Shown here: piece after piece, positions 1 through 7,477 of the stretch
Layout of the letters: each line of letters starts with the position of its first letter
Position numbering within the stretch: position 1 is the first letter of the stretch
NCBI GenBank assembly: GCA_039794845.1
Contig: JAUQVK010000023.1
Coordinates: forward strand, 1-10,253
Origin: Thermostichus sp. DRC_bins_24
GTDB taxonomy: Bacteria; Cyanobacteriota; Cyanobacteriia; Thermostichales; Thermostichaceae
Length of the DNA stretch: 10,253 bases
Direction: 5' to 3'
Program-made: the position numbers and the translations under genes
Notes under the pieces: generated by a model
Databases searched by the model: none
What the model was told of the DNA's origin: nothing
What the model saw: only the letters and a program-made list of their open reading frames with translations

Positions 1-866
1 TTCATTCATGTACATTTTTGCCCTCTTACTCGTGCCAGCGTGTCCTTGTGCATGAACTAGAATCATGTTCTATGCCATTGAGGTCTGGTGAGTACCTTGG
101 CAGAAATACCACTTCATGGCCTCCTGCTTTCACCAACTCCCTTATCCTCTCCTTGCGATGTTCCTCTAGGTCATGCAGAACACGATGAATCAAGGCATTA
201 TCACAGTCAAGACCGATGGTCTTTCTTAACTTGGTGTTAGGTATCGCCCTAGCCATCCCTAATGCTCCACATCGCTTGCGCGACCAAATCCTTCTGGGTT
301 TAAGCTGCTCTGAAAAAGCATGGGTGCTATCAAGCTTTTCTTCTTCTGCCTACCGGCCACTACAGCTCTTGCGTGGTTCTTCTACAGCAAGACTTGTGCT
401 TTCCGTTCCTGTTCCCGCTACGCGGGATGCGGAGCACTATCCGGATAAAAGGGGAGGTCTCGGCTTCTACGGTTGTAGGTGATTAGCGAAGTATTTAATT
501 CTATCTTGCTATCTTGACAATTGTTTCAGCAGGACTGAGTTCCTTCTCTTTCCTGAGACCTTAGCTCTTTTTTTTCGTGTTATTTTCATTTGCTTCAGAG
601 CATAGTGAATCGCACTCGGTTGAACGCCAAATATCTTGGCTCTATCCTTTAACTTAGCTTCTGGGTACTGCTCCACATGCTCTTTGAGGGCAGCCCAGTC
701 AATCTTTCGCGCTCGTCTCTTGACTACGGTCGGTCTGAGGTCATCTCGGCCTAGCCAGCGATAAACAGTTGAACGGCTGACTTCGTAAATCCGTGCAGCT
801 GCCGTCGGGCCACCTCCTTTCTCGATATACCTAACGACCCTCTCTCAAGTCCAAGCTGTGGCTCAT
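1..866 (-). pseudogene. IS630-family transposase pseudogene
   Basis: ATG at 866 gives MSHSLDL, then a 2-nt loss in a GA run near 841-845. It continues ERVVRYIEKGGGPTAAARIYEVSRSTVYRWLGRDDLRPTVVKRRARKIDWAALKEHVEQYPEAKLKDRAKIFGVQPSAIHYALKQMKITRKK, with a frame change at the A8 run (568..575). Later fragments are ELRSQERE, QDRIKYF, VAGRQKKKSLIAPMLFQSSLNPEGF, GWLGRYL, DNALIHR, GHEVVFLPRYSPDLNGIEHD and KRAKMY. The DNA..H and LPxYSPDLNxIE motifs are IS630 DDE hallmarks. The first catalytic motif (YIDESG-like) is missing, and there are in-frame stops and insertions. Confidence 0.9.
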
Positions 867-915
867 GGAGCTCCCTCTCATGATTCATCTCCAGGTCATG
901 TTACCTTTAGCACCG

Positions 916-939
916 TCTCATCCTCAACTGAATTGACTA
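916..939 (-). repeat. Left terminal inverted repeat of the IS630 element
   Basis: The minus strand reads TAGTCAATTCAGTTGAGGATGAGA, about 50 nt upstream of the transposase ATG. It closely resembles the 24-bp ISY100 end as I recall it (TAGTCATTTCAATTAACGATGAGA). The partner repeat is outside the window. Confidence 0.7.
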
Positions 940-5263: not shown

Positions 5264-7477
5264 CTACTGGGGAAGAGTAGGCGCAAAGGTGTTGTTGGGG
5301 AAGGTGCAATTGGTGGAGGGCACTTGGACGGAGTTGTTTTGCACCCGGCTGGGGAAGTTCGCATTCCGGCCTGTATTTCCCTGCGCTGCCAGAGCCGCCG
5401 TTAGAGCCGGACTGGGGTTGGCTGCCGGGATGGGGGTGGTGATTCCAAACAGTTCCAGCACAGCATTTTGCTGAGATCTGAGGAAATAATCCAACCCTAC
5501 CCCCCCAGAGTTATCCGAGCTGTTCTCAACGATCCGAGCACACAAGCGGGAGTCATTTTGCGCCCGCACAAAGATGCCCGCATCCGCTGCGGTGGTTGCG
5601 CCCGTGACGCTGTTGTCGAATAAGCCCACGAACAGTTGGTTGGTCTCGGCCCCTGCGCCTGCCCCTGAGCGCACCCGGATGCCATCGCCATTGGCTCCAT
5701 TGACGGTATTGTTCACCATCACCCCCGTGGCCCTGGAGGTATCTTCCAGTTGAATATCCAAAGCCCGCTGCCCGGCGTTGCTGACGGTGTTGCCCTCGAA
5801 GCGGAAGAAGGCTGTGGCATTGTTAACCGGGCCACTACTCCCATCACCGCGGTTCATGTTGATGTCGATCCCTTTACGGCCGGGGTTGGTGACGGTGTTG
5901 TTGCGAACCGTGATGTTCATGGTGGAGTCTTGGCGGGGCCGGATCCCGATGCCATCGGCATCCACATCGGGGCTGGGGTTGAGGGTGGTGGGGCCGGTGA
6001 TGGTATTGCCCTCGATCAAGCCCCGCACCGTGCCGTTGCCCGCCGAGACGAAGGAGATGCTGCGATCTTGGATCTCGCTTAGGGTGTTGCCGCGAATGAT
6101 GATATCCAGTTGTGCTGTGCCATTGGTATCGGAATCGATGCCATCATCATCCGTATTGCGAAGGGTATTTCCTTCTACCAGGGCCTTGCCGACAGCCGTA
6201 TCAAACATATTGACTTCCATGCCGTCGATATCCAGCAGCGCTTCCCCAGTTAATGCCAGGGTGGTGCCATTGGGGTCGATATCCACCAGGTTGTTGGTCA
6301 GCCTTGTATTGACGGTGCCTCGGGTATTGGTGTGGACGATCCCCCCTTCAATTCCAGAGCCTCCCGCCAAGGTGGGTTTGTAGCGAATGTCTTGAACTGT
6401 ATTTTGATCAATGATGACGGTGCCGGTCACATCCCGCAGATAGATCCCTTCGTTAAGGGCGCCTTCCACATTGTTGTCGGAGAGGTTTACAGTACCCTCC
6501 ACATCCTGCAAGAAAATCGCCCGGGATCCGGAATTGACAAAGCGGCTGTCTTGAACGGAGAAATCCCCATTGGCATTGGTGAGCAGGATCCCGTTTTGGT
6601 TGGCATCAGTCACCGTCAGGTCGGTGAGGGTAGCTCGATTGAGACCCGTCAGCTGAATCACATTTGCCGCATCAGCAGCAGGCAGGTCCACCGATCCGTT
6701 CATGGGTGGGGCATTCGTTCCCAGGAACTCTAAGTTCCGCAAGTTCAATCCATCGGCCTCGCTGTTTCCCAGTAGAAGGGCTACCTCTGTGCACCCTCCT
6801 GCGGCGGCGTCAACATTGGCCCCATCAAGGGTCAATGCTTCTATCGTGATGTTGGAAGCTTCAACGGAAACGCCAACACAAACCGGGCTGCTGGAGGGAG
6901 CAAGAATCGTTTGACCCGTGCCTGCGCCTCGAATCGTCAGGCCAGCTTTGTCCAAAACCAGAGTGCCGGATCCCTGCAGGTATTGTCCTGCAGCCAGAAT
7001 TAGGGTATTGGCAGGGTTCGCCAGATTCAGACCTTCAGCCAGTGTCACTGGAGAAGCCGGGCTAGAGCCATCTCCTCCTCCCAAAGGAGACACAAAAATC
7101 GTTGTCAGGGGAGGAGTGGGAGTTGGGGTCGGAGTGGGAGTTGCGGTGGGGGTGGGAGTCGGACTCGGGCTTGGACTTGGAGTGGGAGTCGGGGTGGGCG
7201 TGGGCGTGGGTGTTGGGCTAGGAATCGGGGTGGGCGTGGGTGTTGGGCTAGGAGTCGGGGTGGGCGTTGGAGTCAGCGTGGGTGTTGGGGTGGGCGTGGG
7301 CGTCGGCGTGGGGGTGGGAGTCGGACTCGGCGTGGGGGTGGGCGTTTGAGTTGGAGTCGGAGTTGGGAAGGATCCGGAAATAACCGGAAGACTAGGACTG
7401 CTAGAGGAACATCCTGCCAAAATTACAGAGGCTGCAAGGGTGAGTGTAACTAGAATAGGCAGCGATCTTTTCCTCAT
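5264..7477 (-). CDS. Predicted lipoprotein with Pro/Thr linker and right-handed parallel beta-helix (pectin-lyase-like fold) repeats
   Basis: Signal peptide [23 protein letters not shown] has a lipobox (LAGC) followed by a Ser run. Then an 86-aa PT linker and a DUF1565-like cap ([31 protein letters not shown]). Many IxGNTI/xxGI repeats follow. Alternative start at 7498. Confidence 0.85.
7109..7366 (-). repeat. (Pro-Thr/Ser)n low-complexity hexamer repeat inside the lipoprotein gene
   Basis: 258 nt of degenerate 6-nt units. It includes a 30-nt-period duplication (gtgggcgtgggtgttgggctagga at 7200 and 7230). Confidence 0.95.

Follow-up and report, generated by a model that had tools for sequence, protein, structure and literature searches.

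The small dispersed repeats (SDRs) SDR1-8 of Nostoc punctiforme and its relatives were reportedly described by Elhai et al. in 2008 as very small mobile repeated elements. To our knowledge, their mode of movement has been open since 2008, and SDRs have been regarded as restricted to heterocystous cyanobacteria. In the portion of one report available to us, SDR5 enters between nucleotides 3 and 4 of HIP1, and the Thermostichus lineage is assigned the iterated palindrome GGGATCCC and not HIP1 (PMC4390886); according to the accessible text of another report, HIP1-rich genomes from beyond the Nostocaceae yielded no SDR-like repeat (PMC5861425). In our study, we analyzed a stretch of 10,253 nt from Thermostichus sp. 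DRC_bins_24 (hereafter, the window), which is the complete contig C23 (JAUQVK010000023.1) of assembly GCA_039794845.1 and which holds, at one end, a dead insertion sequence (IS) of the IS630 family. Four short inserts in this dead IS are probably (at a probability of about 0.8) copies of two mobile families of very small twin-hairpin elements of the SDR type, which we call FAM24 and FAM27.

Both families shared with SDRs a unit length of 21-27 nt, many dispersed near-identical copies, precise insertion, tandem arrays, and nesting in other repeats, the last represented by FAM24 inside a MITE (miniature inverted-repeat transposable element), by a twin-hairpin module at 412-438 of the window, and by the FAM27 arrays. 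Exact units were also present or absent at orthologous sites in both families. In HIP1-rich genomes, copies of the FAM24 24-mer could lie between GCG and ATCGC of HIP1, the site reported for SDR5. Unlike the SDRs, FAM24 was greatly amplified in a genus remote from the Nostocaceae, namely Thermostichus, where its target was C-N-G^A in place of the HIP1 site of SDR5, and FAM27 formed a second family with a TCATC target of its own. For Thermostichus or Synechococcus JA-3-3Ab, a literature search gave no published description of the repeats; FAM24 and FAM27 are further elements of the SDR kind, in a lineage for which the literature searched held no prior description. The initial annotation of this DNA, made from its letters alone, had proposed an undescribed system, which was only partly right, as the behavior of FAM24 in HIP1-rich genomes is like that published for SDR5. 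Ultra-small mobile repeats are therefore not confined to the Nostoc group.

Inserts in the dead insertion sequence

Insert boundaries were determined with MAFFT by aligning positions 1-960 of the window (minus strand) against five relatives of the IS, including the intact copies L032, L036, and L041. The initial annotation had reported five micro-inserts, (a) to (e), in the remains of the transposase gene and had suggested SDR-like mobile elements in place of ordinary decay. Four of them, (a), (b), (d), and (e), were real, as they were extra relative to the intact copies (Table 1), and an SDR-like origin was borne out for these four by the two dispersed families, by exact 24- or 27-nt presence or absence, and by the separate inserts of a second dead copy. 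That proposal required intact relatives to be free of the segments, and they were; R1, a covariance model (CM) trained on 31 other FAM24 copies from the genome of the window (G000; 3.50 Mb, 115 contigs, 56.9% G+C), gave no match at E <=1 in L032 or in L036-L042.

Insert (a) yielded the best R1 match of the window (25.3 bits, E 4.1e-5) and had 14 matches in the genome at <=6 mismatches, compared with a shuffle mean of 5.0. Insert (b), a 27-nt unit made up of the 22 nt and the 5-nt repeat first described for it, matched, flanks included, the FAM27 unit, which stood as tandem units at C28, C53, and C24 and as one copy within a gene at C89. It was decayed at 7 of its 27 positions, 6 of these changes being GC-to-AT transitions, a pattern expected for an old pseudogene. 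In insert (d), the first hairpin was preserved by changes on both sides; 16 of 24 positions matched the reverse complement of a family member at C96, and a near twin at C95:2747-2769 (21/23 identical) had the same variant first hairpin, TGT-TTCA-GCA. Judging from these similarities, (d) may be a member of a small diverged subfamily rather than a product of random decay. The twin lies just 3' of a gene's stop codon. Insert (e) represented a net gain of 22 nt around 29-57, for which the family match gave a 25-nt element with ca. 2-3 nt of target lost; 10 of 11 positions fit the family head TCGCGCCAGCG, and a comparable copy was present at C6:38442. The inserts had been said to share one orientation, which was incorrect: the forward reading of (a) and (b) was on the minus strand, that of (d) and (e) on the plus strand. 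The motif GTYnnGCW...RRRRCA, offered as common to them, was not a family signature.

Ordinary pseudogene decay or an assembly error, with chance likeness to repeats, would provide another origin for the inserts, and frameshifts and the 8-nt duplication at 501-516 showed that decay had occurred in the IS. Its other support came from insert (e), with 5 genome matches at <=5 mismatches and a shuffle mean of 2.9 (no excess), and from two single similarities that were rejected as chance matches: (b) to C18:4896-4915 in a sigma-factor-like open reading frame (ORF; 19/20, E 0.79) and (a) to C4:59660 (E 2.8). The R1 score of insert (a), the match of (b) to a 27-nt unit that includes the TCATC flanks, the exact agreement of insert lengths with family lengths, and the like behavior of an independent dead copy (L034) all spoke against this origin, which we consider largely refuted and scarcely credible. 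Assembly error across the dead IS was unlikely, as contigs from two studies agreed with the sequence: a Logan contig of 1797 nt from run X1, possibly the source sample, spanned 1-1000 with 2 differences and 0 gaps, and a contig from a second study (X2) spanned 358-544 with 0 differences. In runs X3 and X4, sampled words of the window were next to absent. Excision footprints of MITEs were also considered as the source of (a), (b), (d), and (e) and were rejected, as no TA was present at the junctions and all four matched FAM24 or FAM27.

Insert (c), at 373-397, did not stand as a micro-insert, as it lies within an IS630-type MITE (Table 1) that takes the place of ca. 150 nt of orfB, from the TA in IKY/Y to the TA in L/VAGRR. 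As in an IS630-type MITE, the element had terminal inverted repeats, lay at a TA target, was present in many copies, and was without coding capacity. Its copies had TACAGCCCTT.. and ..AAGGGCTGTA as terminal repeats, bordered by TA, with 167 blastn matches over positions 356-490 of the window, and all 39 non-self matches of the IS query in its own genome were confined to the MITE stretch. The family was abundant and modular: word-7 blastn gave up to 134 genome matches for the 3' 40 nt (361-401), ca. 85 for the middle, and ca. 30 for the 5' part. Subfamilies with and without the twin-hairpin module occurred, other copies being found, for example, at C78:7122-7248 and C75:14191-14306, and many held FAM24 in their 5' part. 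The module nested in the window's MITE scored 10.8 bits with R1 (E 0.17), and its DNA fold had an energy of -7.2 kcal/mol (z -2.36).

After its death, the IS630 element was struck by one IS630-type MITE, three FAM24 copies, and one FAM27 copy. A dead IS may act as a neutral sink in which inserts accumulate because insertion costs nothing, while within genes only tolerated in-frame copies, of 8 or 9 codons, would persist. The four inserts occupied 0.94 kb of dead IS, compared with a strict genome-wide count of ca. 1 per 35 kb.

Table 1. Coordinates of the dead insertion sequence in the window and of the features within it
Feature	Position	Strand	Remarks
Dead IS630-family insertion sequence	1..939	-	Cut off by contig end; aligned against intact L032, L036, L041
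Insert (e), decayed FAM24, TGYC-CTT-GGCA subfamily	29..53	+	CT-CGT GCCA GCG-TGTCCTTG(T)GCA-T
Insert (b), FAM27 copy	157..183	-	GTGTTCTGCATGACCTAGAGGAACATC; 27 nt, directly after TCATC (184-188)
Insert (a), FAM24 copy	261..284	-	GT-CGC GCAA GCG-ATGT GGA GCAT-T; 24 nt, boundaries unambiguous
IS630-type MITE, 133 nt	361..493	-	Ends TAC..TTCGC.. and ..GCAAGAGCTGTA, between TA sites
Twin-hairpin module nested in MITE, 27 nt	412..438	+	TT-CCCGC TAC GCGGG-ATGC GGA GCAC-T
8-nt tandem duplication, CAAGATAG x2	501..516	-	Sequence read against alignment; ordinary decay; adjoins insert (d)
Insert (d), FAM24 variant	520..543	+	AT-TGT TTCA GCA-GGAC TGA GTTC-C; 24 nt
A8 run, orfA/orfB frame change	568..575	-	Natural programmed-frameshift site, not damage

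FAM24 and FAM27 as genome-wide families

Tandem Repeats Finder (TRF) and a motif scan defined FAM24 as a 24-nt twin hairpin of the form xT-CGC GYYA GCG-NNNN (GGA, CTT, CTA, TTA)-N'N'N'N'-x. In G000, the CGCGNNAGCG site was followed by a perfect hairpin with a 4-bp stem and a 3-nt loop in 98 of 197 cases, compared with 8 of 175 in the reversed-genome control. The 98 copies included 31 stem/loop combinations, and pairing in the second stem was kept through changes on both sides. By location, 40 of the copies were solos, 22 were tandem units, and 36 were nested in the 5' part of a MITE; among those outside MITEs, 52 of 62 lay in open frames of >=200 codons, with both strands and every phase represented.

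FAM27 was a 27-nt unit of two adjacent mini-hairpins, ATC-GTGC TCC GCAC-GACCC GGA GGGTC, with a variant, GTCC..GGAC, that preserves the first stem. At <=4 mismatches, G000 held 41 units (26 tandem, 15 solo), and the reversed pattern gave 0. FAM27 was found, in one to four units, in a repeat of ca. 100 nt of the form ..CCTCCCGACGCAATGCCTAGCGGGTAGAGCGCGGGACTTAT[FAM27 x1-4]CGCTCCCCGTAGCGCAGCGTGCCGCAGGCTTACCCCTCAT.., of which at least 11 copies were present in G000, including those at C28:3600-3800, C53:40000-40200, C24:21900-22050, C45:200-400, and C92:32600-32700. The 5' part of this repeat matched the region 3' of an IS200/IS605 tnpA in two related genomes (G008, G006), and by this similarity the repeat looks like a transposase-less IS200/IS605 derivative. 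A tRNA-like GGTAGAGCGCGGGACTTA stretch in the repeat was considered as a possible tRNA or tmRNA and rejected, as ARAGORN found none; the repeat had no match in Rfam.

The location of most FAM24 copies in long open frames could point to a different explanation, in which the units are selected peptide modules of 8 or 9 residues, or functional RNA or DNA signals, spread by selection and gene conversion. Both unit lengths are multiples of three, and the two-sided changes that keep the second stem paired would also suit such a function. The copies, however, occurred in both orientations and in all frame phases, mobile DNA (a dead IS, MITEs, and IS200/IS605 ends) contained them, and orthologues of the genes that held them were without them. 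A search of Rfam with the window and five repeat loci likewise gave no match to FAM24 or FAM27; its only hit was a chance one to SCARNA6 (E 0.035), below the gathering score. We therefore regard selected modules as very unlikely.

Some findings weigh against reading the four inserts as copies of mobile SDR-type families. The R1 matches of (d) and (e) were weak (4.5 bits, E 6.5, and 3.9 bits, E 9.3, respectively), and their membership in FAM24 is suggested, weakly, by partial matches that fall exactly on alignment gaps. The 31 stem variants of FAM24 were drawn from copies that had been selected for pairing, so that the control ratio, rather than the number of variants, is the evidence. The initial annotation had expected structure above a shuffled background; the folding energies of the four inserts in the window were no better than those of shuffles (z = -0.79, -0.29, -1.34, and +0.47), whereas the FAM24 family as a whole clearly exceeded its reversed control. 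Support from hairpin structure thus holds at the family level only.

Evidence of movement and target sites

The 21-nt FAM24 pattern was present at >=124 filled loci in public genomes, nearly all of them hot-spring isolates named 'Synechococcus sp.' or Thermostichus metagenome-assembled genomes (MAGs). At those loci, G000 was empty in 37 cases, partial in 11, and filled in 6, while the site was unspanned in 63 and gave no hit in 19. An exact difference of 24 nt was observed in 34 of 40 flank-anchored pairs, several of which were paralogues of one gene family. Within G000, a gene on C63 with a 1611-codon frame carried three FAM24 copies; its site at 2034-2057 was empty in three relatives (G004, G008, G003), and its site at 1275-1298 was empty in two (G004, G008) and held a different stem variant in three others (G001, G005, G006). 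For FAM27, the copy at C89:25581-25607 in a thioredoxin-like gene was present in G000, whereas the site was empty in each of the 11 genus relatives, which had TCATC or TCGTC there. Length differences of exactly 24 or 27 nt between orthologous sites show that FAM24 and FAM27 have moved, and the filled and empty sites between genomes that the initial annotation had suggested looking for were found for both families.

A second dead copy of the IS, L034 in G006, carried FAM24 inserts of its own (R1, 25.6 bits). At ca. 2090-2120 of L034, a decayed FAM24 lies within ca. 1 nt of the position of the window's FAM27 site (157-188); in the word TCATCG, one strand supplies the TCATC^ target and the opposite strand CG^A.

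FAM27 sits 3' of TCATC and itself ends in TCATC, the empty state being known at 2 sites, those of insert (b) and C89. Because the unit ends in its own target, insertion next to an existing copy is allowed, which accounts for the tandem arrays. The target of FAM24 in Thermostichus was C-N-G^A, and 121 unique solo copies had the flanks C(90%) C(71%) G(71%) n T(94%) / core / T(86%) T(82%). At 19 unique clean pairs, in which filled loci (L055-L154) were compared with G000, one base of the empty allele (A in 16, G in 2, C in 1) corresponded to the 25 nt of xT-core-Tx. The upstream triplet was nearer to CCG in the filled than in the empty alleles, and no target duplication was found at these 19 pairs.

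Distribution and relation to SDR5

At E <=0.01, R1 gave 28-141 matches in each of 12 genomes of the genus, 0-10 in other genera of the family, and 0-9 in each of the remaining 38 genomes; these counts are rough, since scoring covered no more than 129 candidates per genome. FAM27 was found in 6 of 61 genomes, with 37 units in G000, 53 in G008, 6 in G010, 5 in G004, and 1 each in G013 and G022. A distant cyanobacterium, G048, held one perfect FAM24 (C1:904114-904137, 38 bits) and a weak second, together with 7 identical copies of a related IS630 element; a horizontal arrival of FAM24 in this genome is possible.

The CM matches in distant cyanobacteria had the same 24-mer head as FAM24, and in G044, 3 of the 9 copies displayed (L243, L253, L267) lay exactly between GCG and ATCGC of HIP1. 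Because the same 24-mer sits at GCG^ATCGC in HIP1-rich cyanobacteria, FAM24 is probably of the SDR5 type and greatly expanded in the GGGATCCC lineage, a putative label based on the insertion site. A point on the other side is that SDR5 is termed a 21-nt sequence in the available part of one source (PMC13756078). The conserved core of FAM24 is 21 nt.

The hot-spring Synechococcus A/B (Thermostichus) lineage thus holds tens to >100 copies of such repeats per genome, with filled and empty sites between species, defined targets (C-N-G^A for FAM24, TCATC^ for FAM27), and, in some relatives, a position near IS200/IS605 transposase genes. With many isolate genomes and deep hot-spring metagenomes at hand, rates of insertion and excision, intermediates, and the enzyme are directly testable. 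As regards annotation, 8- or 9-codon inserts of selfish origin are probably present in many of the proteins encoded by these genomes.

Possible mechanisms of movement

The elements might move as single-stranded hairpin DNA that is cut and joined in trans by a HUH/Y1 (IS200/IS605-type) transposase. They are hairpins, FAM24 inserts without target duplication, and FAM27 uses a fixed target word, as would be expected of this route. In 4 of 8 loci, R1 matches lay <=ca. 170 nt from a tnpA match, in two IS copies of G008 the tnpA stop was followed, at ca. 14 nt, by one FAM27 unit, and the FAM27-array repeat of G000 matched the right-end region of an IS200/IS605-type IS. The closeness to tnpA may, however, be a mere neutral-sink effect of mobile-element DNA. 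The sole Y1 gene of G000, an IS200/IS605 tnpA at C103:11473-11737, was frameshifted and had no neighboring repeat, and repeated IS copies may be absent from the 115-contig assembly; this Y1 match (C103:11473-11817) adjoins a TnpB-like ORF fragment. The FAM27-carrying tnpA type of G008 was not found in G000, where the best match was 33% identical and dead; copies 98-100% identical to it occurred only in G008, the next best (62%) being in G001. Relative to the local GC skew, which is a weak proxy in cyanobacteria and was read here from a 115-contig genome, the strands of the elements were divided 17/13 and 9/9, with no association, and the one-base replacement at the FAM24 junction is unlike a simple 'peel and paste' event. 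With these findings weighing against it, the HUH/Y1 single-strand route is our best guess, and a tentative one.

The one-base replacement fits better with co-copied bases of the donor flank than with simple cut-and-paste. It could result from template switching or from microhomology-guided copying, with an existing copy as the template in replication or repair and without a dedicated transposase; a CCG-TT-core-TT cassette would then overwrite CNG-A at the target. Hairpins favor polymerase stalling, and the flanks of the 121 solo copies gave a conserved unit of 28 nt, longer than the net insertion of 24 nt. The single base of the empty allele (A in 16/19) against 25 nt in the filled one, the nearness of the filled upstream triplet to CCG, and the failure to find an intact Y1 gene in G000 would also suit such copying. 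A homology of three bases, on the other hand, is very short for distant donors, identical 24-mers at >100 loci per genome suggest an efficient dedicated process, and the strict TCATC target of FAM27 is enzyme-like; template switching is therefore doubtful. Among mechanisms, we gave about three-tenths of the weight to the HUH route and about a quarter to template-switch copying, and the rest was left unassigned.

FAM24 and FAM27 could be the smallest transposable units seen so far, bare twin hairpins whose single strands would be excised and pasted by a HUH/Y1 or other enzyme, with the A after C-N-G being swapped for a 25-nt cassette when FAM24 integrates. SDR5-type elements that split HIP1 would then use the same chemistry, with CG^A of HIP1 as the cleavage site. 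This wider proposal is unlikely as a whole; if true, it would tie the HIP1 palindrome to a mobile-DNA nicking activity.

Comparison with other short mobile repeats

Rickettsia palindromic elements (RPEs), of ca. 100-150 bp, are tolerated in frame within protein-coding genes. FAM24 and FAM27 are similarly palindromic repeats tolerated in frame within genes, and unlike RPEs they are only 24-27 nt long and also form tandem arrays. Insertion sequences of the IS200/IS605 family and their transposase-less derivatives (palindrome-associated transposable elements, PATEs) transpose as single strands by 'peel and paste'. At 24-27 nt, FAM24 and FAM27 are several times smaller than any IS200/IS605-family element known to us. 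FAM27 resembles these elements in being defined by hairpins and, at the 2 sites for which an empty state is known, in standing 3' of a fixed 4-5-nt word (TCATC) without duplication; its arrays form part of a repeat similar to the right-end region of an IS of this kind. FAM24 differs from them in the replacement of one base at its junction, and no strand bias was seen by GC skew. Background on the single-strand transposition of IS200/IS605 is given in the accessible text of PMC6006769.

Repetitive extragenic palindromic (REP) elements and REPINs are mobilized by REP-associated tyrosine transposases (RAYTs; Y1 HUH), according to the parts of the sources available (PMC3116915, PMC3733652, PMC6006769). 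As described there, they are short, hairpin-forming, high-copy repeats without target duplication, and FAM24 and FAM27 share these properties. Some FAM24 and FAM27 copies also adjoin Y1 genes in relatives, and two FAM24 copies stand head to head after tnpA in L222, much like an inverted REPIN pair. In contrast to REP/REPIN elements, there was no GTAG/CGTC tag, the heads being xTCGCG in FAM24 and (AT)CGTGC in FAM27; FAM24 was mostly within open frames rather than extragenic; and neither a RAYT nor an intact Y1 gene was found in the search of G000.

Other features of the window

In the dead IS, orfA, which bears an HTH_Tnp_IS630 domain, meets orfB, a DDE frame now decayed, at a slippery A8 run. 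Translated positions 542-844 matched HTH_Tnp_IS630 (Pfam PF01710, E 1.1e-36). Relatives of the element were matched in 21 of 60 other genomes, and no second DNA copy was found in the G000 assembly. A run of A7-A8 was present at the same place in 5 of 5 aligned relatives, and the intact ones had two overlapping ORFs there, so the frame change at 568-575 is natural. The remainder of orfB was broken by stops, frameshifts, and insertions.

Elsewhere in the window, TRF detected a degenerate G-rich repeat with a period of 18/24 nt at 7113-7368 (10-14 copies, 66-67% matches). It lies inside a 744-aa minus-strand ORF with a beta-helix domain and is probably a low-complexity linker.

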